A stretch of DNA of 34,317 nucleotides from an uncultured bacterium (GCA_964372275.1 CAYJRR010000041.1:1-34317); one strand, 5' to 3'; shown: positions 4,042-16,734, numbered from the stretch's first letter. The notes: generated by a model not told the origin, from the letters alone. Numbers and translations are program-made.

Positions 4042-5208
4042 TCAGAAGAGCCGGCCTTGCTTGAGAAGCGCGCAGAATGCGGCAACCGGCAGGACCTCGA
4101 TGCCGTCTGGGAGCCGCATCTCGTCGCGGCCCGGATGGACCAGGATCCTCCGCCTCAGTCCGGACAGCGGCTCGATCGCCTTCAGGCCCTTGATCCAATC
4201 GGCGCGGAACCGGCGGCCGGATTTCGCCTCGATCGCCACGAACGACCGGCCCTTCTTCAGCAGGAAATCGACCTCGATTCCTTTCGCCTCGGTAGGGGAC
4301 CAGTAGTACATCTCGTCGAACAGATCCCGGTAGCTCCGATAGGCGCGAAGAATCTGGGCGGTCCATGCTTCGAACAGCGCCCCCTGTTCTTCTCCGGCGA
4401 CGGGTCCGAAGTCGCCTCTGGCGGCACGCGCGATACCGTTGTCGGCCCAATACAGCTTCGGATGCCTGCGCTCGCGCAGGCGGAGCTTGGCCTCGAAGCC
4501 GGGGAGCTCGAAGGCGAGCAGGGTGTCTTTCAGGATCTCGACGTACGAGGCGACCGTGGTCCGTTCGACGCCGCACTCCCGCGCAATCGACGAGACGCTC
4601 AGGATCTGACCGTTCAGGAGACCGGCGACGGGGAGGAACCGGACGAATCCCCCCAGGTTCCGGACGAGCGCCTCGGCCTGGATCTCCTCCTTCAGATAGG
4701 TCTGGACGTAGGTCTTCAGGCGCAGCTTTCGCTCCGACGGATCGCTGGCGACCACCAGGGGAAGCGTTCCCGACTCCAGCGCCCGTTGCAGGTCGAAGTC
4801 CGCCCCCATCTCCTCGGGGACGAGCGGCAGCATCTCGCGGAGCAGCGCCCGCCCCGCCAGGAGGTTTGCTCCGCCGCGCCTGAGTTTCCGCGCGCTGGAG
4901 CCGGTAAGGATGAACCGTAGTTTCCTCGTCTCGAGGAGCCGGTGAACGTCGTTCAGAAGGTTGGGGAGCCGCTGAATCTCGTCCACGAAGATCCACGCTC
5001 CGGGAGAGGCCATCCGCTCCACGAGTCCGGAGAAAACGGCGGGATCGGCGAGAATCCGCTGATAGAGGCCCTCGTCGAGAAGATCGATCCGCGGGGCTTC
5101 GGTGAACTCCCTTCCGACCCAGGTGCTCTTCCCCGACCCACGGACGCCGAACAGGAAGAACGAGCTTTTCGGGCGCTCCAGCATCCGGCGGTAGGAGACG
5201 TACGCCAT
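4042..5208 (-). CDS. AAA+ ATPase (AAA_14) with HTH and DUF4143 domain
   Basis: Walker A GVRGSGKST, Walker B IFVDEIQ, ILTGSS, LAGRA, KLYWADNG and C-terminal EVDFLL...AIEAK; start at ATG 5208. Confidence 0.9.
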   Translation of the reverse strand: MAYVSYRRMLERPKSSFFLFGVRGSGKSTWVGREFTEAPRIDLLDEGLYQRILADPAVFSGLVERMASPGAWIFVDEIQRLPNLLNDVHRLLETRKLRFILTGSSARKLRRGGANLLAGRALLREMLPLVPEEMGADFDLQRALESGTLPLVVASDPSERKLRLKTYVQTYLKEEIQAEALVRNLGGFVRFLPVAGLLNGQILSVSSIARECGVERTTVASYVEILKDTLLAFELPGFEAKLRLRERRHPKLYWADNGIARAARGDFGPVAGEEQGALFEAWTAQILRAYRSYRDLFDEMYYWSPTEAKGIEVDFLLKKGRSFVAIEAKSGRRFRADWIKGLKAIEPLSGLRRRILVHPGRDEMRLPDGIEVLPVAAFCALLKQGRLF

Positions 5209-5212
5209 GGCT

Positions 5213-5249
5213 GATCTCATATTTCGTCGAAAATTGAGATCGATGTCAA
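5213..5249 (-). promoter_or_regulatory. TTGACA -35 element and 29-bp imperfect palindrome (operator-like) upstream of the AAA/DUF4143 gene
   Basis: TTGACA on - strand at 5244-5249; GATCTCATATTTCG-T-CGAAAATTGAGATC at 5213-5241 (12 of 14 arm positions symmetric). The -10 element is weak. Confidence 0.55.
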
Positions 5250-5432
5250 CGAGCATCGATCGTGGATCGGCGCCAGACTGCGGCACGGATCGGATCGGCC
5301 TCGGCCGGTTCGGTCGTCGTCCTTCCAGTAAGGACAAGATGTCGAGAAAACGGTCGTCCACGAAGGACAAGGTTCAAACGCGAGGGGAGTCGGGTCCCCG
5401 CAACCCGGGAACTGCGCCGGCCCGGGGTTCGC

Positions 5433-5461
5433 TTGACGGCCGGGGGGCCGGCGCGTAGCAT
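5433..5461 (+). promoter_or_regulatory. Putative sigma70 promoter of the phosphonate operon
   Basis: TTGACG (5433-5438), 17-bp spacer, TAGCAT (5456-5461), about 50 bp before ATG 5511. Confidence 0.65.
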
Positions 5462-5510: not shown

Positions 5511-6704
5511 ATGGGAATTCTCCATCGATTCTGGGGGCCTTGGGCGTCGTTGATGCAGATTCGGCGGCTGCCGGCCTCGGACCGCGAGATCGTCTTCTAT
5601 TCGGAGGGGCGGTCGGATTGGCCGCACTTGGGGCCGATCGTTCGGGAGCTCGCGGCGGGGGGGCGGCGGGTCTGTTACGTGTCCTCCGAGGAGAGTGATC
5701 CGGGGCTTTCGCTCGGGGATCCGAACGTGGTCGGGTTCCACGTCGGGGCCGACTCGGCGCGAACGGCTTTTTTCAAGACGGTCGAGGCGAAGGTCGTGGT
5801 GATGACGATGCCCGACCTGGAGACCTTTTTCCTGAAGCGCTCGGTGCATCCGGCGCACTACGTCTACGTCTTCCACGCCATCGTCTCGAGCCACCGCATC
5901 TACCGGAAGGGGGCGTTCGACGCCTACGACACGGTGCTCGCGGTCGGACCCCACCACGTCGAGGAGATCCGCCGCACCGAGGCGGTCTACGGCTTGAGGC
6001 CCAAGGCGATCGTCGAGCACGGCTGCGCGCGGCTCGACGAAGTGATTCGCGCGGCGGCGGCGCGGCCGGCGTTCGTCCCCTCGCCGGGTCCGGCCAAGAA
6101 GGTGCTGCTCGCGCCGTCGTGGGGGGAGTGCTCCTTTGCCGAGCGGCCGTACGGGGGCGACCTGATCGACCTCCTGCTCCGCGCCGGGCACTCCGTCGTG
6201 CTGCGGCTCCACCCGATGACGGTGCGCCGTCTCCCCAAGCTCGGGCCCTCGATGGAGAGCCGCTTCGCGGGACGACCGGGGTTCCGCGTCGAGACCGACA
6301 TGAGCGCGCAGGAGTCGCTGCAGACCTCCGACCTGATGATCAGCGACTGGTCGGGAGCGGCGTTCGACTACGGGTTCGGTCTCCTGCGCCCGGTGCTGTT
6401 CGTCGACACCCCGACGAAGGTGAACAACCCCGAATGGCAACGGCTGGGGATCGCGCCGCTCGAAGAGAAGGTGCGGCGGGAGATCGGCGACGTTCTCGAT
6501 CCCGGGGAGCTGGCGCGGGCGCCGGAGAAGGTCGCGGCCTTGACCGCCGATCCGACCGCCTTCGCGCAGCGGCTCCGAGCGGCGCGCGAGCGCTGGGTCT
6601 TTCATGTCGGCCGCAGCGCGCCGGTGGCGGCCGCCCACATCGCGGGGCTTTGCAGCCCCGGAGACGAGCGGATGGCACCGCTCCAGGAAGCGAAGGCGAG
6701 ATGA
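5511..6704 (+). CDS. CDP-glycerol glycerophosphotransferase (TagF/TagB-like) family protein; putative phosphonyl transferase
   Basis: VLLAPSW, LRLHP and [15 protein letters not shown]...PVLF family motifs; stop overlaps the pepM start (ATGA). Confidence 0.8.
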
Positions 6705-8362
6705 GCACGAAGAAGAAGACGGCGGCGCTGCGCGAGATCCTCACCGGCAGGGGTGCGGGGAGTTCCCCGCAGGAGCCCGAACGGGCGGACAAGCGCCTGC
6801 GATTCCTGATGGAGGTCCACAACGGGCTCTCCGCCAAGATCGCCGAGGAGGCGGGGTTCGAGGGGTTGTGGGGAAGCGGACTGTCGATCTCCGCCTCGAT
6901 GGGCGTGCGCGACAACAACGAGATGAGCTGGACGCAGGTCCTCGAGCTGCTCGAGTTCGTGACCGACGCGGTGAAGATCCCACTGCTCCTCGACGGCGAC
7001 ACCGGTTACGGCAACTTCAACAACATGCGGCGGCTGGTGCAGAAGCTCGAGGCGCGCGACGTCGCCGGCGTCTGCATCGAGGACAAGCTCTTCCCCAAGA
7101 CCAACAGCTTCCTCGGCGAGAACCAGCCGCTCGCCGACATGGACGAGTTCTGCGGCAAGATCAAGGCGGGGAAGGACGCGCAGAGCGACGACGCCTTCTC
7201 GATCGTCGCCCGCGTCGAGGCGCTGATCGCCGGATGGGGCCTGGCGGAGGCCTTGAAACGCGCCGAGGCCTACCGGCGCGCCGGGGCCGACGCGATCCTG
7301 ATCCACAGCAAGCACTCCAAGCCGGACGAGATCCTCGCCTTCAAGAAGGAGTGGGGGGACCGCAGCCCGGTGGTGATCGTCCCCACCAAGTACTACTCGA
7401 CGCCGACGCAGGTGTTCCGCGACGCCGGGATCGACGTGGTGATCTGGGCCAACCACCTGATGCGCAGCTCGCTCACCGCGATGCAGGAGACGGCGAAGCA
7501 GATCAAGCGCGAGGAGAGCTTGATCGACGTCGAGGGCCGGATCGTCGGCGTCAACGAGGTCTTCCGCCTGCAAGGGGCCGGGGAGCTGGAGGAGGCGGAG
7601 CGCCGCTACCTTCCGGCCAAGCAGGAGTCGCCGCAGGCGCTGATCCTCGCCGCCGGACGCGGCAAGGAGCTGGGGGTCCTCACCGAGGACCGCCCCAAGG
7701 CGATGGTCGAGATCGCCGGCAAGCCGCTCCTGGAGCGGACGGTGGAGACGCTGAACGCGATCGGCATCAACGACATCACCGTCGTGCGCGGCTGGAAGAA
7801 GGAGGCGCTCAAGCTTCCGAACCTGAAGTTCGTCGACAACGACGAGCACGAGACGACGCAGGAGGCGTTCTCGCTCTTCAAGGGGATCGAGAAGCTCGTA
7901 GGGCCCGTGCTGATGGGCTACGGCGACGTGCTGTTCCAAAAGTTCATCCCGATGCACCTGTTCGAGTCGGACGCCGACTTCTGCATCGCGGTCGACTCGG
8001 AGGCGTCGTCCAGCCCCGGCCAGGACCGCTACCGGGACCGCGTCGCCTGCGACCGGCCGTTCCACTGGAACCGCTTCGACCAGAAGGCGTACCTGACGAA
8101 GATGAGCGCCGGTCTCCCCCAGGCCGAAACCCACGGCGAGTGGATCGGGCTCTTGAAGATGTCCGCCGCGGGGCTTGCGCAGCTCAAGTCGATCGGAAAG
8201 GAGATCGCCGGCGGCGCTTCGTTCCGAACGATGCGAATGGCCGACCTGTTCACCGTCCTCCTGGAGCGCGGGAAGAAGGTGGAGGTGGTCTACGTCCGCG
8301 GGCACTGGCTGGACGTCGACGACCTGCACGACGTCGTCGCGGCGGCGGGCCAATACCGATGA
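6701..8362 (+). CDS. pepM: Phosphoenolpyruvate mutase fused to C-terminal nucleotidyltransferase (PntC/LicC-like)
   Basis: Diagnostic EDKxxxxxNS ([10 protein letters not shown]), HNGLSA, DGDTGYG, VPTKY; C-terminal ILAAGRG...DRPKAM and WLDVD. True start ATG 6701. Confidence 0.96.
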
Positions 8363-10599
8363 AAGCGATCGTCATCGCCGCGGGGCTCGGAAGCCGGCTC
8401 CTCCACCTCACCAAGGACCGGCCGAAGTGCACGCTGACGATTCAGGGGGTCTCGCTGCTCGACAATCAGCTCGCCATCTTCCGCGAACTGGGAATCCACG
8501 ACGTCACGATCGTCACCGGCTGGCACGCGGAGATGCTGCAACGTCCCGGGGTGAAGACGGTCTTCAACGACGACTTTCGGAACAACAACATCCTCTTCTC
8601 GCTGATGTACGCGGAGAAGGAGCTCGACGACGAGGTGATCGTCACCTACTCCGACATCCACTACGAAAAGGCGGTGGTCGAGGCGCTGCAGGCGGCGACC
8701 GGCGACTTCCTGGCGGTGGTGGATGCCGACTGGAAGAAGACCTACGTCGGGCGCGCCGACCATCCGGTGGAGCAGGCGGAGAAGGTGGTGATCGCCGGAT
8801 CCGAGATCCGGAAGATCGGAAAACACCTGACCGAGGCCGAGGCGCACGGCGAGTTCATCGGGTTGGTGCGGTTCTCCAAGAAGGGGGCGCTCGCCTTCCG
8901 CGAGGTGTTCGCCGACGTGAAGGCGAAGCATGCCGGAGGTTCGTTCCAGGCGGCGAAGGAGCTGAAGAAGGCCTACCTTACCGACATGCTCCAGGAGCTG
9001 ATCGACCGCGGGCACGCGGTGGCGCCGGTGACGATTCACGGCGGCTGGCGCGAGATCGACACCCTCGAAGATTTCCGGAAGGCGGGGGGCGACGTGCCGT
9101 CGGACATCCGCAGCGGACAGAACTTTCGCGCGATCCTCAACGACCTGAAGCGGCGTCCCGAGGACGCCGGACTGCTCNNNNNNNNNNCCTATTTTTCCGG
9201 TCGGGGGGGGGGCCCCGCGCCGCCGCCCCCCCGCCCCCCACACCCCCCCCCCGCCCCCCCCCCCCCCCTCCCGCGCCGCCCCCGGCGCGCCGCGGCCGAG
9301 CTCGGCGTTCCGCTCGCCGAGATCGAGGCGGTGATCGCCGGGAAGCGCCCCCTCCCCTCCGCGATCGTCGACAAGGCGGTCGCGGCCTGGCCGGTCAGCC
9401 CCCGCGACTTCTACCTCCTCGAGGACGACGCCCCGACCGGGGTGCGGATCTTCCGCGAAGCCGACTCGAAACGGAGCCGGCGCGTCATGCAGCGCGCCGG
9501 GAAGGACTACTACGAGTACCGCGACACCGCGATGAGCGCCGGCTCTCAGTTCCGCCCCGAATGGATCCAGGAGCTTTGCGTCGTCGACGACGACGACCCG
9601 GAGAACCCGGCCGTCCAGTGGAACAACGGTCACTTCCTCCACCAGTTCACCTACTTCGTCGGACCGGTGAACTTCTACTGGCGCGGACCCGATGGACGGA
9701 AGCGCGTCTCGGTGATGGAGACCGGCGGCTCGATGTACATCACCCCGTTCGTGCCGCACTCGTTCGCGTCGCGGCGAAACGAGCGCGGGGAGTTGGGGCT
9801 GATCCTGGCGCTCACCTACGGCAACCTGCTCGGCGGCGAGACGCGGCAGGAGATCGGCGCCCACGGGGTCGAGCTGGCGTCGCGCCTGGCGCTCGACTTT
9901 TCCGCCCCCGGCGCGGCGCGTGGCGCCCTGATCCGCTTTCACCGCGAGGGGTCGAGCCTCACCAAGGCCGAGCTCGCCCGGCGCGCCGACGTGGCGCCGG
10001 CGCGCATCGACGAATTGGAACGGGGAGCAGAGACCGCGTCCGAGGCCGAGATCCGGCGTCTGGCGGCCGCGCTGCGGGTGAACGTTCGCGACCTGCTGCC
10101 GCCGGAGCCGGAGGAGGCGGTGATCGTGCGCCATCGCAAGGACGCGCCGCGCTGGACCTACCCCGAAGCCGGCAGCAAGCCCGAAACGTCCCCCGCCTAC
10201 GAGATGGTGGAGCTGACGCCGGTGCGAAGCCTCCCCTTCTCCAAGGGGCTCGAGGTGAACGTCCTTTCCGGCGGAACCGCGGCCCCCGACCTGCAGGTCG
10301 GACTGCAGCAGTACGTCTACAACGTCGGCTCCACGCCGGTGGCCCTCTCCTGGCGGAACGGCGGCGAGTCGTACGAAACGACGCTTGGCCCGGACGACTC
10401 CGCGTATCTGAAGGCGTGCGTCCCGCACGCCTACCGCGGCGAAGGGGGACGCCTGCTGGTGCTGCGCATCGGCTCGCGGCTGGGAAGCGACGGACTGATG
10501 GAGCTGTCGCGGATCGCGGCAGCGGGTGCGGGCAATTTGGAGCGCATCGTGGGTGATGCAGGACAGTGGTTCGACAAAGCTGGGCGGCGGAATGTGTAG
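8359..10599 (+). CDS. mpnS: Fusion of nucleotidyltransferase (about 8359-9090) and methylphosphonate synthase-type Fe(II) dioxygenase (about 9094-10599), interrupted by an assembly gap
   Basis: N-terminus IAAGLGSRL...DRPK, YLTD, WREIDT; C-terminus [60 protein letters not shown], closely resembling Nitrosopumilus MPnS as I recall it. ATGA overlap with pepM. Confidence 0.88.
9169..9291. other. Scaffold gap (10 N at 9178-9187) with flanking low-complexity C-rich sequence, probably artefactual
   Basis: Ns and C/G homopolymer runs; removing these 123 bp restores KRRPEDAAAELGV. Confidence 0.8.
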
Positions 10600-10605
10600 G
10601 TTCGC

Positions 10606-11751
10606 ATGATCCAAGCGCCCGACTTTTTGGAACCCGCTTTGGCGCGGGGCTTCACCTTCTGGTCGGGTGTCCCCTGCTCGTTCCTCACCCCCTTCATCAA
10701 CTACGTCCTCTCCCGCGACGACCTCGACTACGTCGGGGCGGCGAGTGAAGGGGAGGCGCTGGGGATCGCCGCGGGGGCGCACCTCGCGGGGCGGAAGACG
10801 GTCGTCATCTGCCAGAACTCGGGGCTCGGCAACGCGGTCAATCCGCTGACCTCGCTCAACCACATCTTCCGGATTCCGACCCTCTTCATCACCACCCATC
10901 GCGGCGCGCCGGGTCTCAAGGACGAGCCGCAGCACGCGCTGATGGGGCAGATCACCGGGGAGCTGCTCACCACGATGCAGATCCCGTGGGAGGTCTTTCC
11001 CGACGACGCCGCGGCCGTCGTCCCTGCGCTCGAGCGCGCGGAGCGGTCGATGGCCGAAACCGGGCGTCCGTTCGCCTTCGTCATGAAGAAGGGGACGGTC
11101 GCCGACTATCCCCTCCGCACGAGGGAACGCCGCGCCGTTCCGCCGATGGCCCAACCGTCGGGGACGTTCACCGCCGCGGTCCGGATGACGCGACTCGACG
11201 CCATCCGCGTGGTGCGCGACGCGGCCGGGCCGGACGTGGCGCTGATCGGCACGACCGGGAAGATCGGCCGCGAGCTCTATGCACTGGGCCATAGCCCGAA
11301 CCAGCTCTACGTCGTCGGCTCGATGGGCTGCGCCTCCGGGATCGGACTGGGCCTCCACCTCGGATCGCGCGGAAAGCGGCGGGTGGTCGTCCTCGACGGC
11401 GACGGCGCGGCGCTGATGAAGATGGGCACGATGGCGACGATCGGACACGCCGCCCCCGCCAAGCTCGTCCACGTGATCGTCGACAACGAGGCCCACGAAT
11501 CGACCGGCGGACAGGCGACCGTCTCCTCGTCGATCGACTTCGCGACGGTCGGCAGCGGCTGCGGCTATCGCCATCTGTGGCGAGTCGACTCGGCAGAAGC
11601 GCTCGCCGCGGCGGTCTCGGCGGCGCTCGAGCGCACCGGCCCCATCCTGGTGCACGTGAAGGTGGGGATCGGCTCCGCCCCCGACCTCGGCCGCCCGGCC
11701 CACACCCCGGTCGAGGTGAAGGAGCAGTTCATGAGCTGGTTCGCCCGGTGA
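10606..11751 (+). CDS. aepY: Phosphonopyruvate decarboxylase (ThDP-dependent)
   Basis: GVPCS, QNSGLGNAVNPLTSL, DEPQH, VGSMGCAS, DGDGAALM, HESTGGQ; pepM operon context. Confidence 0.95.
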   Translation: MIQAPDFLEPALARGFTFWSGVPCSFLTPFINYVLSRDDLDYVGAASEGEALGIAAGAHLAGRKTVVICQNSGLGNAVNPLTSLNHIFRIPTLFITTHRGAPGLKDEPQHALMGQITGELLTTMQIPWEVFPDDAAAVVPALERAERSMAETGRPFAFVMKKGTVADYPLRTRERRAVPPMAQPSGTFTAAVRMTRLDAIRVVRDAAGPDVALIGTTGKIGRELYALGHSPNQLYVVGSMGCASGIGLGLHLGSRGKRRVVVLDGDGAALMKMGTMATIGHAAPAKLVHVIVDNEAHESTGGQATVSSSIDFATVGSGCGYRHLWRVDSAEALAAAVSAALERTGPILVHVKVGIGSAPDLGRPAHTPVEVKEQFMSWFAR

Positions 11752-11758
11752 CGCGATC

Positions 11759-12886
11759 TTGAGGAGCTTCCACAATCCCGTGTCGGTGCGCTTCGGCGCC
11801 GGCGCCCTCGGCGAGCTTCGCGACCTCGCGCGCGGGCGGCGCGCCGTCGTGCTCGCTTCCGAGGGGATCGTCCGTCGCGGGACGCTGGCCGCGGTCGAGT
11901 CGGCGCTCGACGTCACCGGCCGCTTCACCTCGATCGCCCCGAACCCGACCCTCCTCGCCTGTTCCCAGGTCGCGGAGCGCCTCGCGGCCTGCGCGGTCGA
12001 GGTGGTGGTGGCGATCGGCGGCGGGAGCGTCCTCGACACCGCCAAGGCGTTCGCCGCCCAGCGGTCGGCCCCGGACGGTTGGCTGTCGGCGCACCTGCGC
12101 GAGGGCGCACCCTTCCCCGCCGACTTTCGCCCGCCTCCGATCCTCGCCGTCCCGACGACGGCCGGCACCGGAAGCGAGGTGACGATGTGGGGGACGGTCT
12201 GGGACGAGAAGACCGGACGCAAGTATTCGATCTCCCACCCGCGCCTCTATCCGGAGGCAGCCCTCGTCGATCCGACCCTGACGCACACCCTTCCGCCGGC
12301 GACGACGGTGGCGACGGCGCTCGACGCCCTGTCGCACGCGATGGAGGCGATCTGGAACAAGGGCTCGAATCCGGTCTCGGACGGCCTCGCCCTGCGCGCG
12401 ATCGAGGTCGTCCCCGACGCGTTGCCGCGGGTCCTGGCGCAGCCGGCGGACGCCGCGGCGCGAGAGGCGCTGGCCGGCGCCGCGCTCCTCGCGGGCCTCG
12501 CCTCGAGCAACACCCGCACGGCGCTCGCCCACTCGATCTCCTACCCGCTCACCTCCGAGCTCGGCGTGCCGCACGGTCTGGCGTGCAGCCTCACCCTGCC
12601 GGCGATCCTGGAGCGTGTCGACGACGAGAAGCCGGCGCGCGCCGCGCTCATCGCCCGGGCGATCGGCCAGCCGACCCCGCGCGCCGCCGCCGAGGCGCTC
12701 CGCTCCACGTTCCGGGCGGCCGGTGTCGGCGAGGAGCTTCGACGCCGGATCGCCGGCGTCGACGCGCTCGCCGGGCTGCGTGGCTCCCTCATCGCCCCGG
12801 GCCGCGCCGAGAACTGCCTGATTGCCGCCGACGCGCCGGCGGCCGCGGAGATCCTGCGCCGGTCGTACGAAGCCCTCTGCGCCTAG
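11759..12886 (+). CDS. Iron-containing alcohol dehydrogenase, probable phosphonoacetaldehyde reductase
   Basis: GGGSVLDTAK, PTTAGTGSEVT, DALSHAMEAIW, TALAHSISYPLT, HGLAC; follows aepY; TTG start. Confidence 0.88.
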   Translation: MRSFHNPVSVRFGAGALGELRDLARGRRAVVLASEGIVRRGTLAAVESALDVTGRFTSIAPNPTLLACSQVAERLAACAVEVVVAIGGGSVLDTAKAFAAQRSAPDGWLSAHLREGAPFPADFRPPPILAVPTTAGTGSEVTMWGTVWDEKTGRKYSISHPRLYPEAALVDPTLTHTLPPATTVATALDALSHAMEAIWNKGSNPVSDGLALRAIEVVPDALPRVLAQPADAAAREALAGAALLAGLASSNTRTALAHSISYPLTSELGVPHGLACSLTLPAILERVDDEKPARAALIARAIGQPTPRAAAEALRSTFRAAGVGEELRRRIAGVDALAGLRGSLIAPGRAENCLIAADAPAAAEILRRSYEALCA

Positions 12887-12895
12887 ACTGCCCGA

Positions 12896-13669
12896 TCAGT
12901 GCGGCCGTTCGACCGCGAGGAAGCGTTCGAGCATCGCGTTGACCTGGTCGGGGACCAGTGTCATCAGAAAGTGACCACCCCCGACGGTCTGCCCGATCAT
13001 CGCCTGCGGGCACAGCTCCTTGAGCCGTCGATAGTCCGACGGGAACGGCCCGCCGATCGCGAGGAGCGGCACCCTGCATCCCCGGGCTGCGGCCTCGACG
13101 TCATGAGAAAGGAACGCCTCCCACGAGGAGGAGACGACCGATTGCGGAGTCTCGAGCATTCCCGAAACGATCCGCCCCTTCTCGCTCGGGTCATCCGTCG
13201 GCAGGAAGGCGACCTGGTCGGCGAAACCGCGCAGCACGTCCTTCCACCCAGCCGTCTTGAACGCCGGGGCCACCTCCACGAACCCCCTGGCGAGCGGCTC
13301 GGCCAGCCATAGCGCCGCGTCGACGAGGACGATCGCCGAGACCAGGTCTGCGTAGCGGGTACCGACCTCGAGGCCAAGCCCGCCCTGGCTGTGGACGACG
13401 ACGGCTGGTTTGTGCAGCCCGAGTTCTCGGATCGTCCAGGCAATGTCGTCGGCGAATCCCTCGATGGTGTAGCGCTGGTCCGGCTTGTCGCTCTTTCCGT
13501 GACCGCGCCGATCGATCGCCACAACCCGGTGCCGGGCGCGGAAGTACTCCATCTGCGGCCGGAAGTGGGTCCGGTCTCCGCAGAAGCCGTGGACAAAGAG
13601 AAGCGGCGGCGCGCCTGCGCCCGCCTCTTCGTAGTGAAGCTTCACGCCGTTGCGGTCGAGAGTCGGCAT
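12896..13669 (-). CDS. Alpha/beta-fold hydrolase
   Basis: FVHGF, DRRGHGKS, nucleophile elbow VHSQG, C-terminal GGHF; AAGGAG RBS. Confidence 0.9.
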   Translation of the reverse strand: MPTLDRNGVKLHYEEAGAGAPPLLFVHGFCGDRTHFRPQMEYFRARHRVVAIDRRGHGKSDKPDQRYTIEGFADDIAWTIRELGLHKPAVVVHSQGGLGLEVGTRYADLVSAIVLVDAALWLAEPLARGFVEVAPAFKTAGWKDVLRGFADQVAFLPTDDPSEKGRIVSGMLETPQSVVSSSWEAFLSHDVEAAARGCRVPLLAIGGPFPSDYRRLKELCPQAMIGQTVGGGHFLMTLVPDQVNAMLERFLAVERPH

Positions 13670-13782
13670 GTCCTGTCTCCTTCGCAGCCCTCCATGGGCC
13701 GATCGCCAGCGAGGCTACGGCGACGGGAGCACGCGCGAAATTGCCCGGTTCATGCATTTTCGGCCGCCGGCGATGGAGCGAA

Positions 13783-16734
13783 CTATGTAGGAGGCCGCGC
13801 GAGACCGTGGCGTATCGCCCATCCGGTCGCCTCGGCGCGCCCGTGCGCGCCGATCTTCGCGTAGATGTTGGCGATGTGACGCTGAACGGTAGTGAGGCTC
13901 AGGTACAGCCGAGATGCGATCTCCTTGTTCGTTCGCCCCGCCGCCAGAAGGCCCAGGACTTCGGCCTCGCGTCCCGTGAGTCCGCCGGGATGCACACGGT
14001 CACCGCGCGCGGCACGGACGCGCTCCACCCATGTCTGCATCCCGAGACGCGCGAAGCCGGCCTCGGCATCGGCGAGCAGGTCCGAGGCGCGGACCCGCTC
14101 ACGCGGAGGTCGGCCGAGCCGCCATCGCGCCTCGTCGAAATCGGCGAGCGCGCGGACCGGCCGCTGCCCTCGCGCTTCGGCCGCTTCCCGAGCCCGCATG
14201 AATCCGTCGTGGGCTCGGCGCGCATCGCCGGCAAGCGCCGCCATTCGGGCGATCGAGAGCTCGCGGCAGGAGAAGGGCGCGCCCCCCACTCCCTCTCGGC
14301 CCGATTCGATCGCGATCCGGAGGTAGCGCCGCGCCAGTTCCGGATCTGCCAACTCCCAGACAGCGGCCGCGGCGCAGTCTCGACTCACACCGAAGTCAGC
14401 GGTGAGCGGCGGGAGAGACTCGTGAGCGCGAACCATCGCGCTCAATAGCCGCGTCGATTCGGCCCCCTCACCCGCCATCGCGAGTCCGAGGATGACCAGC
14501 CCCGAAAGGACGAGTCCGAACGCCGTCCGTGACGTCTCCGGATCGGTAACGATCCGATGGGGCTCGCCGACCACGGTCGGCCATTCGGCGCCGCCGAGAT
14601 AACCGAGCACGGTTCGCAGTGCGGTCGGCGCGACCACGCGATAGCGGTGCCCGGATCCGAGCCGCTCGGCCACTTCACCCAGCCGTATCGCCGTACGGCG
14701 CGCCGACTCGAGTTCCCCCAGGGCGGCCTGGCTGCATCCGATCACGACGAGCGCGCCGGCTTCTCCCGGGATCGAGCCGTATCGTTCGCAAAGGGCGAGC
14801 ATCTCCTCCATGACCGAGATCGCCGCGTGATAGTCCTGGTGCCGGAAGAAGCAATCGCGCCCCAAGGCGTTGAGCGCGGCGATCCTCGCGGCCGGCGACC
14901 TCCAGCTACGCACACGGCCCAGCGCCTCGTCGGTTTCGGCGCGCGTCCGATGCCACCCGGTGTCGAGCGTCGACGCGAAGTCGTCCTCGCTTGCCTGCGC
15001 GCACAGCACGGCGATCGCCTCCGGATCGACCGGCACGCAGACCCCGACGTGGATCGGCCCTGAAAGGACCGGCTCGATGCGGTCACGGAGCAGCATCAGT
15101 CTCGCCCAAGGCGCGCTCCGCTCGCTGCCGAGCATGGCGAGCCCGCGGTCGACGAGCGGTTCCCACCACCCCCTCGGCGCGCCGCCGGCCTTGAGCGCGC
15201 GCGCGACGGCCGCGAGAAAATCGGCGACCACGGCCGCGGGAGCGCCTGCCTCCTCCAGCGCCCGCCACGCATCCTCGGTCGTCCTCGCCGCGCGCTCGAG
15301 TAGGAGCGCCTCCGCCTCCGCAAGGGCCTGCCCGCGCAACACCTGCGATCGCCGCTCCGCGGTCAGGTACCGGCCGAGGTCGCGGGCCACCGCGAACAGG
15401 GTCGCCGCCCGCTCGTGGGCCGCCCCCGCACGCGCGCGCTCCGCGGCCAGGAGGGCATGGTCGACGCCGCGCTCGGCCCCAGGAAGATCGACCGATGCGT
15501 GGAAGTGGAAAGCGATGTCGCCCGGATCGCCGCCGATTCGCTCGAGGGACTCCGCGATCCGCCGGTGTGCGCGCGCCCGCCGCCATGGATCGAGGCGGTC
15601 GTATATCGTCCGACGCACCAACGCGTGCGAGAAGTGATAGCGCCCGCGGACACCCCGCCGAATCAAGCCGGCCGCCGCCGCCTCGTCGGCGCAGGCGAGA
15701 AGAGACTCGTCTGTGAAGCCGGTCGACCCCTGGAGCACGTTGAAATCGATCTCGCCGACGAGTGCGGCCGCGTCGTGGAGCATCGCAACCGTATCGGCGG
15801 AGAGTCGAGAGAGGCGACGCGCGACGACGGCGCGAACACCCACGGGCAGTCCCAGCTCCCCGAAGCTGCTTTCCGAGGACCAGCGGCCCTCGCGCGCCAC
15901 GATCTTGCGTTCCTCGACGAGGTGGCGGAAGAGCTCGCGGAGGTAGAAGGGGTTCCCATCGGTTTCGGCGAGGAGCGTGCGTGCCAGCGCCTGCGGTACA
16001 TCCCCCCCGCTCTCCAGGGCGAGGTAATCGCGCACTTCCTCTTCGTCGAGGCCGCGGAGCGATAGGATCTGCGCTCCCGCGTCTCGCGCGAGCGTGCCCT
16101 CCAGTTCGGAGATCGCCGCACGGTCGAGACCGATCTCCGGGTCTCGCCACGTACAGAGCACGAACCACCGCCGCCGGGGAACGAACCGGGCGACGTGCCT
16201 CAACAGGCCCAGCGTGTCGCGGTCGGCCCAGTGGAGGTCCTCCAACACGACCAGGACAGGACGATCCGCCGCCACAGCGGACAGCCAACGGGTCACGGCG
16301 TCGTGGAGACGTGCACGCTCCTCGGGCGCTGCGAGCGGGGCGACGGGTGGCAGGTTGGGAAGAGCGCCGCGAAGGTCGGACGATAGCGCGGCCAATGCCG
16401 GCGCGCCGGCGCCCATCTCGCGCACAAGCCGGTCGGGCGGAACGGCACGCAGGTATCGCTCCAGCGACTGCAGCCAAGGTCCGAAGGGCCGGGTGCCGTC
16501 CGATTCGAAACACGCACCGCGAAGGACGCGCGTGCCACGGGACGCCGCCCGCGCAGCGATCTCTTCGGCCAGACGTGTCTTGCCGATCCCCGCCTCGCCC
16601 ACCAGACAGGCTGCCGCCCCACGCCCGTCCTCGGCCAGGCCGAGGAGCGTGAGCAGCCGTTCCAACTCCCGGTTCCTTCCGACGAACCGATCGCCCATCG
16701 CGCGCCGTGAGTCTACCTCCGCCAGTTGGGGCAT
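13783..16734 (-). CDS. Large ATP-binding LuxR-family regulator (ATPase, helical repeats, LuxR HTH)
   Basis: FVGRNREL, GEAGIGKT, LEDLHWAD, GNPFY, C-terminal LTGREAEVL...TNKEIA...TVQRHIANIYAK. Start uncertain (16800, 16734 or 16698). Confidence 0.9.
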   Translation of the reverse strand: MPQLAEVDSRRAMGDRFVGRNRELERLLTLLGLAEDGRGAAACLVGEAGIGKTRLAEEIAARAASRGTRVLRGACFESDGTRPFGPWLQSLERYLRAVPPDRLVREMGAGAPALAALSSDLRGALPNLPPVAPLAAPEERARLHDAVTRWLSAVAADRPVLVVLEDLHWADRDTLGLLRHVARFVPRRRWFVLCTWRDPEIGLDRAAISELEGTLARDAGAQILSLRGLDEEEVRDYLALESGGDVPQALARTLLAETDGNPFYLRELFRHLVEERKIVAREGRWSSESSFGELGLPVGVRAVVARRLSRLSADTVAMLHDAAALVGEIDFNVLQGSTGFTDESLLACADEAAAAGLIRRGVRGRYHFSHALVRRTIYDRLDPWRRARAHRRIAESLERIGGDPGDIAFHFHASVDLPGAERGVDHALLAAERARAGAAHERAATLFAVARDLGRYLTAERRSQVLRGQALAEAEALLLERAARTTEDAWRALEEAGAPAAVVADFLAAVARALKAGGAPRGWWEPLVDRGLAMLGSERSAPWARLMLLRDRIEPVLSGPIHVGVCVPVDPEAIAVLCAQASEDDFASTLDTGWHRTRAETDEALGRVRSWRSPAARIAALNALGRDCFFRHQDYHAAISVMEEMLALCERYGSIPGEAGALVVIGCSQAALGELESARRTAIRLGEVAERLGSGHRYRVVAPTALRTVLGYLGGAEWPTVVGEPHRIVTDPETSRTAFGLVLSGLVILGLAMAGEGAESTRLLSAMVRAHESLPPLTADFGVSRDCAAAAVWELADPELARRYLRIAIESGREGVGGAPFSCRELSIARMAALAGDARRAHDGFMRAREAAEARGQRPVRALADFDEARWRLGRPPRERVRASDLLADAEAGFARLGMQTWVERVRAARGDRVHPGGLTGREAEVLGLLAAGRTNKEIASRLYLSLTTVQRHIANIYAKIGAHGRAEATGWAIRHGLARPPT

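Follow-up and report, generated by a model that had tools for sequence, protein, structure and literature searches.

A TagF-like protein encoded at the head of a methylphosphonate operon is a candidate CMP-methylphosphonate:acceptor phosphonyl transferase

The 34,317-nucleotide stretch of DNA analyzed here (CAYJRR010000041.1, positions 1 to 34317, from the uncultured bacterium assembly GCA_964372275.1; referred to below as the window) carries an operon whose first gene, at positions 5511 to 6704, encodes a TagF-like protein designated P0001. On sequence grounds and with moderate confidence, we propose that P0001 is a cytidine monophosphate (CMP)-methylphosphonate:acceptor phosphonyl transferase. 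The protein is a good candidate for fixing methylphosphonate onto cell material because its gene heads an operon that is predicted to make methylphosphonate and to activate it with CMP. The CMP-phosphonate framework is already known; the new element is a subfamily with the TagF fold that most likely takes CMP-methylphosphonate. We know of no account of how methylphosphonate becomes attached to macromolecules.

Organization of the operon and the methylphosphonate genes

The region from 5511 to 12886 is one tight operon, since its genes are joined by ATGA overlaps and by later spacers of 6 and 7 nt. The stop codon of the P0001 gene (TGA, 6702 to 6704) overlaps the ATG at 6701 of a gene encoding phosphoenolpyruvate mutase (PepM) fused to a nucleotidyltransferase (NTase), and another ATGA overlap at 8359 to 8362 leads into the gene for a second NTase. 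Upstream, a divergent DUF4143/AAA ATPase gene (4042 to 5370, minus strand) is separated from the P0001 gene by a 140-bp gap holding a sigma-70-like promoter candidate (Table 1) ~50 bp from the start codon. This candidate has 9 of 12 consensus matches and is the sole such site between 5200 and 13200; shuffled sequence contained a mean of 0.3 sites. An initial annotation of this DNA had described the gene as the first of its operon and as translationally coupled to pepM, and both descriptions agree with this layout.

An alternative public gene call begins at P0001 residue 15 (P0003, 383 amino acids); we retained the ATG at 5511 because relatives align from residues 1 to 11. Neither a signal peptide, the absence of which had been remarked on before, nor a membrane segment was found in P0001 (highest 19-residue Kyte-Doolittle mean, 1.11). 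The N-terminal helix is not notably amphipathic (hydrophobic moment muH, 0.22; rank 206 of 380), and membrane anchoring through it was dropped as a candidate on account of this unremarkable moment.

The two phosphonate-linked nucleotidyltransferase domains reported in the initial annotation were both recovered as PF12804 domains, one at residues 313 to 412 of the PepM fusion protein (P0002), C-terminal to PepM, and the other encoded at 8359 to 9177. LicC (1jyk) is the best solved relative of both, and the second also matches the Treponema PntC-aminotransferase 6pd1. The second NTase is followed by an assembly gap and then by the coding region of a methylphosphonate synthase (MPnS). Around the gap, the frame of the window reads RRPEDAGLL before it and AAAELGVPL after it. 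A close relative (locus L001) is continuous at the same place and has the NTase and MPnS halves in a single open reading frame (ORF) of 704 amino acids (12796 to 14910). Because that ORF runs uninterrupted through both halves, the NTase and MPnS of the window are most likely one NTase-MPnS fusion broken by the assembly, a fusion of which we know no earlier description. The nearest relatives of the phosphonate genes of the window are in Chloroflexota (Limnocylindria-like) metagenome-assembled genomes.

The cupin enzyme encoded at 9292 to 10599 is of the MPnS type, scoring 412.5 bits to MPnS 6b9s versus 275 bits to the hydroxyethylphosphonate dioxygenase HEPD (6b9r). Its motifs VNFYW and SMYITPF correspond to VNFYY and SMYITPF in MPnS and to VNYYF and SVWGLPF in HEPD, and in the alignment its second-sphere residues are Phe and Ile at the positions that are Tyr and Gly in HEPD. 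Born and coworkers reportedly found in 2017 that these second-sphere residues set the MPnS outcome versus that of HEPD. The enzyme being MPnS type and not HEPD type makes methylphosphonate the expected transferred group. The complete set of a methylphosphonate cluster, i.e., PepM, phosphonopyruvate decarboxylase (Ppd), phosphonoacetaldehyde reductase, and MPnS, is present in the operon, the reductase being a putative Fe-dependent alcohol dehydrogenase (Fe-ADH) that matches TIGR03405 (Phn_Fe-ADH) at 337.6 bits, below the cut-off of 423.7. Since PepM-NTase, NTase-MPnS, Ppd, and Fe-ADH are all encoded, methylphosphonate is the predicted product of the operon, with CMP activation at hand.

Genomic context of relatives

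The family of P0001 comprises 1,993 cluster representatives at E values up to 1e-3, and relatives are encoded in 435 of the scanned species genomes. The context census covered the best 80 of these 435 genome matches with up to 10 kb on each side, and the loci were classed by tblastn. PepM/Ppd genes lie near the TagF-like gene in 28 of the 80 loci, and a cytidylyltransferase is encoded in the flank of 27 of these 28. Another 27 loci have a cassette for a glutamine-kinase-like protein (NF004508), a C26 hydrolase, and an NTase, with a flanking cytidylyltransferase in 25, and the remaining 25 loci show neither context and have a cytidylyltransferase in only 3. Altogether, a cytidylyltransferase flanks the TagF-like gene in 55 of 80 loci, with a median of 124 bp between the two. 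Restricting the census to the 33 loci that have 9 kb or more on each side gave a similar division (11 PepM, 12 kinase, and 10 neither). PepM occurs in ~5% of genomes according to Li and Horsman 2022 (PMC8942020), and its presence within 10 kb of the TagF-like gene in 28 of 80 loci greatly exceeds what chance would give.

In the PepM class, the cytidylyltransferase is of the LicC/PntC type (PF12804) in 13 loci and of the unrelated Fom1 type (PF01467) in 16; among 16 PepM ORFs scanned, 13 have an N-terminal PF01467 domain and 1 a C-terminal PF12804 domain. The activating enzyme thus changes fold in these loci while the TagF-like gene stays.

The tree was a quick IQ-TREE maximum-likelihood tree with SH-aLRT support only. 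The window's own clade, starred in this tree, contains seven further loci, all from Chloroflexota, and PepM, MPnS, and NTase are encoded in all seven. The enclosing starred clade (30 rows including the window) has 22 members of the PepM class, 8 of the neither class, and none of the kinase class. The initial annotation had suggested examining whether close homologues co-occur with pepM, and they do so in 7 of 7 loci of the window's clade and in 21 of 29 loci of the wider one. Most PepM-linked loci of the wider clade combine PepM, Ppd, and Fe-ADH with a Fom1-type cytidylyltransferase and are without MPnS; over the whole census, an MPnS-like gene was present in only 13 of 80 loci. The other half of the tree contains at least seven further cases of PepM linkage, among them that of Nitrosopumilus sp. 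(locus L064), in which the family member adjoins genes for an NTase and an MPnS, the latter scoring 656.6 bits to the N. maritimus structure 6b9s.

The kinase-class cassette encodes a ~1,000-residue PPDK-like kinase (NF004508, 890 to 991 bits), a C26 hydrolase, and a PF12804 NTase. The best NCBIfam match of the C26 hydrolases is the gamma-glutamyl-CDP-amidate hydrolase, at 119 to 130 bits and below the cut-off of 250. By analogy, this class looks like the phosphoramidate donor pathway of Campylobacter, whose glutamine kinase, phosphoglutamine cytidylyltransferase, and gamma-glutamyl-CDP-amidate hydrolase in Campylobacter jejuni we take to belong to these families. A cytidine-linked small phosphorus group in the kinase class fits a family in which the CMP leaving group is the constant feature.

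Family membership and fold of P0001

Profiles and a structural model place P0001 as a distant member of the TagF family, in a distinct subfamily of TagF/TarL phosphotransferases. PF04464 was matched at 29.3 bits (E value, 5.6e-7; cut-off, 22.1), so that the cytidine diphosphate (CDP)-glycerol glycerophosphotransferase motifs of the initial annotation are present but weak. This was the sole Pfam family at E values up to 0.01, no LicD family domain was found, and there was no NCBIfam match. A profile of 46 relatives searched against the PDB matched TarL (E value, 2.8e-6) and Cps3D, a TagF-like capsule polymerase (1.3e-4); below an E value of 1 it matched no further family, and epimerases were not among its matches. 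For comparison with canonical members, 27 PF04464 proteins were used, the profile of which matches TagF at an E value of 7.6e-22, and hhalign aligned the P0001 family to them at 98.4% (E value, 5.5e-15; 249 columns).

Structure prediction, one of the checks suggested at the outset, gave a confident AlphaFold2 model (pLDDT, 94.8; pTM, 0.91) with a GT-B fold of two Rossmann-like domains. All of the top 10 Foldseek matches were TagF chains (best E value, 1.7e-13), and VIA-align returned Z scores of 21.2 for TagF (root mean square deviation [rmsd], 5.2; 319 residues aligned) and 20.2 for TarL. The model aligns only to TagF residues 326 to 724, and the identity to TagF is 15 to 17%. We propose that P0001 acts in the cytoplasm as a soluble or peripheral GT-B enzyme.

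Conserved residues

Two histidines of P0001, H122 and H234, are invariant both in 46 and in 81 family members. In the hhalign alignment, H234 corresponds to the invariant H259 ("YPH") of the 27 canonical proteins and H122 to the invariant His of their "LQHG" motif, which reads FHS in P0001. H234 also aligns with the His of the TagF LRMH motif, residue 584 as counted from the printed chain numbering. The hhalign bridge was used because direct phmmer searches started from the L022 and L083 proteins did not yield a workable alignment of the N-terminal domain to TagF. At the position of the canonical TDYSS motif, P0001 has SDWSG (residues 278 to 282), keeping the D-x-S motif of the nucleotide side. 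In the 81 members, which come from many phyla and represent both donor contexts, 38 positions are at least 97% conserved, and many of the 38 are polar residues of the N-terminal domain (H122, S126, H128, Y131, D137, D140, H148, E152, and E157). As a separate observation, PDB entry 3l7m is titled "TagF, H548A," but in its chain numbering the PTWR Arg occupies position 548 and the LRMH His position 584; two digits of H584A were probably transposed in the title.

Proposed reaction and the evidence weighed against it

Gene order and coupling, family membership, fold, histidine conservation, the MPnS type of the cupin enzyme, and the co-occurrence counts are observations; which donor P0001 uses, by what chemistry, and in which direction it acts are what we infer from them. 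PepM, Ppd, and Fe-ADH would make 2-hydroxyethylphosphonate (HEP), which MPnS would convert to methylphosphonate, and the two LicC/PntC-type cytidylyltransferase domains would couple phosphonate to CMP. P0001 would then handle CMP-methylphosphonate as TagF handles CDP-glycerol: an acceptor hydroxyl, activated by H122 of the N-terminal domain, would attack the phosphonate phosphorus, and CMP would leave from the nucleotide pocket of the C-terminal domain (H234 and the S-D-W-S-G motif at 278 to 282), the product being a methylphosphonate ester.

Several observations weigh against this proposal. The PF04464 match is weak and covers only P0001 residues 149 to 297 (profile positions 144 to 291 of 367), in the C-terminal half, and P0001 alone matched TagF by phmmer at an E value of only 2.8. 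Since uridine diphosphate-N-acetylglucosamine (UDP-GlcNAc) 2-epimerases tie with or slightly exceed TagF by VIA-align (Z scores, 22.6 to 21; best rmsd, 3.3 with 300 residues aligned), the comparison identifies the fold as GT-B and not as TagF specifically. The correspondence of H122 to TagF H444 (WHG; H300 in TarL) is a motif likeness only, as HMMER sets WHG in an insertion ~20 residues away. The invariant arginine of the canonical PTWR motif (MPTWR, R210) is replaced by G205 in P0001 (APSWG), and conservation of this glycine across the subfamily is at least 97%. A donor signature could not be discerned, because no alignment column separates the PepM-linked from the kinase-linked members (none has at least 75% consensus in both groups with different residues). 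Nor does the proposal account for the presence of two separate NTase domains.

The family as a whole is not phosphonate specific either, 27 of 80 loci being of the phosphoramidate type and 25 of neither type. Five genomes of the neither class were checked; four lack PepM, one has a true PepM ~59 kb away, and none of the five has a glutamine kinase above the cut-off, so some family members must use other donors. In the loci of this class, the neighbors of the gene are often limited to those encoding a methyltransferase, an LtaS-like ("sulfatase") protein, and a protein of the YidC-like type. Because of the mixed contexts and the lack of a separating column, the donor assignment for the window rests on its operon and clade and not on a family-wide rule.

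On the acceptor side, the 34 kb of the window contain no glycosyltransferase or polysaccharide gene, and the sequences beside the six-gene cassette in L001, L002, L005, and L007 have nothing in common with the window or with each other. The genome of the organism (4.64 Mb, 94.6% complete) contains no LtaS-like partner, and its one YidC-like match (28% identity) is probably a housekeeping insertase and not a partner of the family type. The initial annotation had proposed the transfer of methylphosphonate or HEP to a sugar. The donor side of this proposal is supported by the clade linkage, the cytidylyltransferases, and MPnS, but nothing supports a sugar as the acceptor, since the operon has no glycan genes beside it in the window or in close relatives; the sugar was suggested by analogy and is not a finding. 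The acceptor could be a glycan, a lipid carrier, or a protein.

Alternative explanations

In the chief rival on the acceptor side, the same chemistry would act on a lipid or lipid-linked carrier that is conserved (such as diacylglycerol, polyprenyl phosphate, or a glycolipid) instead of on a variable glycan, with the lipid-bound methylphosphonate either being final or, in other lineages, being passed outward by YidC-like and LtaS-like partners. Conservation of the 38 positions over phyla and both donor contexts, with many polar residues on the acceptor side in the N-terminal domain, argues for one common acceptor, as does the absence of class-specific columns. YidC-like partners in 31 of 80 loci, sulfatase/LtaS-like partners in 25 of 80, 60KD_IMP fusions in 2 of 19 long family forms, and the lack of glycan genes around the cassette point the same way. 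However, a membrane segment is absent from P0001, the hydrophobic moment of the helix at its N terminus is unremarkable, its own genome lacks both kinds of partner, and the conservation of the N-terminal domain could reflect catalysis and not acceptor choice. We consider both versions of the lipid acceptor possible but doubtful. The donor might also differ. HEP appears to be the commoner cargo of the subfamily, because most PepM loci of the wider clade lack MPnS and so few loci of the census have an MPnS-like gene; it has a free hydroxyl, like glycerol phosphate, and two NTase domains suggest two activated species. P0001 could use CMP-HEP made by the PepM-fused NTase and esterify or oligomerize HEP in a TagF-like manner, with methylphosphonate, activated by the MPnS-fused NTase, being a separate product or a chain cap. 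This is unlikely, as MPnS is encoded in all seven other loci of the window's clade and consumes HEP, nothing points to a polymerase over a single transfer, and P0001 lacks the extra membrane-targeting domain of TagF.

More distant still is the idea that P0001 merely lies beside phosphonate genes and is an ordinary transferase for CDP-glycerol, CDP-ribitol, or a different CDP-alcohol, if not some other kind of GT-B protein (for instance, one like the 2-epimerases). The name of the Pfam family, the equal VIA-align scores of the 2-epimerases, and the 25 relatives without a phosphonate or phosphoramidate context, four of whose five checked genomes lack PepM, would agree with it. Yet the gene shares an ATGA overlap with the PepM gene, the same order is found in all seven other clade members and in distant phyla, the linkage to PepM lies well beyond chance as set out above, and sequence profiles match only TagF-family chains in the PDB. 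No glycerol-phosphate cytidylyltransferase had been visible in the initial annotation, and there is no TagD in the window; in the whole genome, the best TIGR01518 match reaches 38.7 bits, versus a cut-off of 165.4. We therefore regard an ordinary transferase as very improbable. P0001 is encoded by the single PF04464 gene of its genome, and a search of the phylum for canonical PF04464 genes covered this one genome only.

Comparison with known systems

P0001 shares with TagF, TarL, and the TagF-like capsule polymerases (Cps3D and Bcs3 type) the GT-B fold, the histidine of the C-terminal domain (H234), by motif likeness that of the N-terminal domain (H122), and the D-x-S motif, and its expected chemistry is that of TagF and TarL, in which the distal phosphorus of a donor linked to cytidine is attacked and CMP is lost. 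Unlike these enzymes, it has FHS in place of Q/WHG, PSWG in place of PTWR, and SDWSG in place of TDYSS. The N-terminal membrane-targeting or extra domain of TagF is missing, the genome has no CDP-glycerol supply, and the context is phosphonate or phosphoramidate synthesis instead of teichoic acid or capsule genes.

The phosphonyl tailoring (Pnt) pathway, PepM-Ppd-(AEPT)-PntC, as described in the accessible text of Rice et al. 2019 (PMC6697681), resembles the window in its PepM-PF12804 fusion, second NTase, CMP-phosphonate intermediate, and expected downstream transferase. It differs in its cargo, which is 2-aminoethylphosphonate (AEP) and not methylphosphonate, as the window encodes MPnS and no aminotransferase, and the window's candidate transferase is TagF-like, not LicD-like. 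In the same text, NTases are reported in two-thirds of pepM clusters, PntC enzymes are shown to make CMP-phosphonates, including CMP-AEP, and LicD-like transferases are proposed, while the role of the CMP-phosphonate and the downstream transferase are left open; "TagF" and "glycerophosphotransferase" have no occurrences in its main text. The accessible parts of Li and Horsman 2022 (PMC8942020) and Acker et al. 2022 (PMC8931226) name no such transferase gene, and the accessible supplements of the latter do not contain the terms glycerophosphotransferase, CDP-glycerol, teichoic, or TagF. As far as their accessible texts go, PMC8931226 and PMC6697681 place phosphonates on glycans or glycoproteins without naming the transferase. 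A full-text literature search, the coverage of which did not extend to Yu et al. 2014 (phosphonoglycans) and Metcalf et al. 2012, returned no TagF-like protein or glycerophosphotransferase tied to pepM or phosphonate transfer.

The methylphosphonate cluster of Nitrosopumilus has the same set of PepM, Ppd, alcohol dehydrogenase, MPnS, and NTase genes, and locus L064 also has a family member. The window, however, is bacterial and has the PepM-NTase and NTase-MPnS fusions, and the TagF-like protein of L064 is in the other half of the tree. The kinase, C26 hydrolase, and NTase cassette of 27 of the 80 family loci is like the O-methyl phosphoramidate pathway of C. jejuni; none of these cassette genes is present in the window, and the C26 proteins of the loci score below the model cut-off.

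Other features of the window and of related loci

The features of the operon region are listed in Table 1.

Table 1. Coordinates of features in the operon region of the window
Feature	Position	Strand	Remarks
Sigma-70-like promoter candidate	5433..5461	+	TTGACG, 17-nt spacer, TAGCAT; consensus match only
TagF-like GT-B phosphotransferase (P0001), candidate CMP-methylphosphonate:acceptor phosphonyl transferase	5511..6704	+	397 aa, ATG start
PEP mutase with C-terminal LicC/PntC-type cytidylyltransferase (P0002)	6701..8362	+	553 aa; TIGR02320, 378.8 bits (cut-off, 319.55)
Second LicC/PntC-type cytidylyltransferase	8359..9177	+	PF12804
Assembly gap	9178..9291		10 N at 9178..9187, then ~100 nt of G/C-run junk; breaks the NTase-MPnS reading frame
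Methylphosphonate synthase, MPnS-type HTH-cupin dioxygenase	9292..10599	+	412.5 bits to MPnS 6b9s
Phosphonopyruvate decarboxylase (Ppd)	10606..11751	+	TIGR03297, 428.1 bits (cut-off, 312.5)
Fe-dependent alcohol dehydrogenase, phosphonoacetaldehyde reductase type	11759..12886	+	PF00465 and PF25137 match

A DUF4143/AAA_14 ATPase gene is also found ~1.6 kb upstream of the TagF-like gene in an unrelated locus (L070, 7192 to 8340), possibly by chance. Between 17511 and 27303 on the minus strand, the window contains sulfur amino acid genes, including those for a Cys/Met pyridoxal phosphate enzyme, a metallo-beta-lactamase-fold protein, and a cystathionine-beta-synthase-like protein with PALP and CBS domains. 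Adjoining this run is the gene for a 293-residue protein whose C-terminal domain is of the copper monooxygenase type (PF03712, 29.6 bits). Neither the run nor this gene is related to the proposal for P0001.

Among 19 long forms of the family that were scanned (the fusions including P0257, P0268, P0239, P0264, and P0157), two were fused to YidC/Oxa1 (60KD_IMP), two to an ABC-transporter ATPase, and one to a formyltransferase-like domain. Cassettes of the kinase class occur in Pseudomonas canadensis, P. brenneri, and Vibrio (L078, 3267 to 14483; L080; L033, 2826 to 12485; and L054, 5536 to 15460) and comprise genes for the kinase, C26 hydrolase, NTase, TagF-like protein, YidC-like protein, formyltransferase-like protein, and sulfatase/LtaS-like protein. 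They adjoin GDP-mannose-dehydratase and GT4 genes and, from their gene content, look like a phosphoramidate-type system for surface decoration. Residues 46 to 227 of the kinase-like protein of L078 (5501 to 8566) are similar to the NTase domains of the window (26% identity over 193 residues, 81 bits). Because its N terminus resembles these domains, this kinase has an NTase-like domain of its own besides the separate NTase gene.

Implications

One source of the methane in oxygenated water is held to be the methylphosphonate esters of dissolved organic matter. P0001 offers a concrete and assayable candidate for the step that esterifies methylphosphonate. The attachment step is directly testable, because a conserved, soluble candidate of ~390 residues sits in methylphosphonate operons from Chloroflexota-like soil bacteria to Nitrosopumilus. 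Culturable Pseudomonas and Vibrio, in which the subfamily is linked to a cassette of the phosphoramidate type, would provide an easy genetic system. More tentatively, and somewhat against our own expectation, the subfamily may be a general "CMP-X head-group transferase" of bacteria and archaea that loads methylphosphonate, hydroxyethylphosphonate, or phosphoramidate onto one conserved acceptor. If so, the enzymes of the window and of Nitrosopumilus would form the methylphosphonate esters that are thought to feed aerobic methane production.

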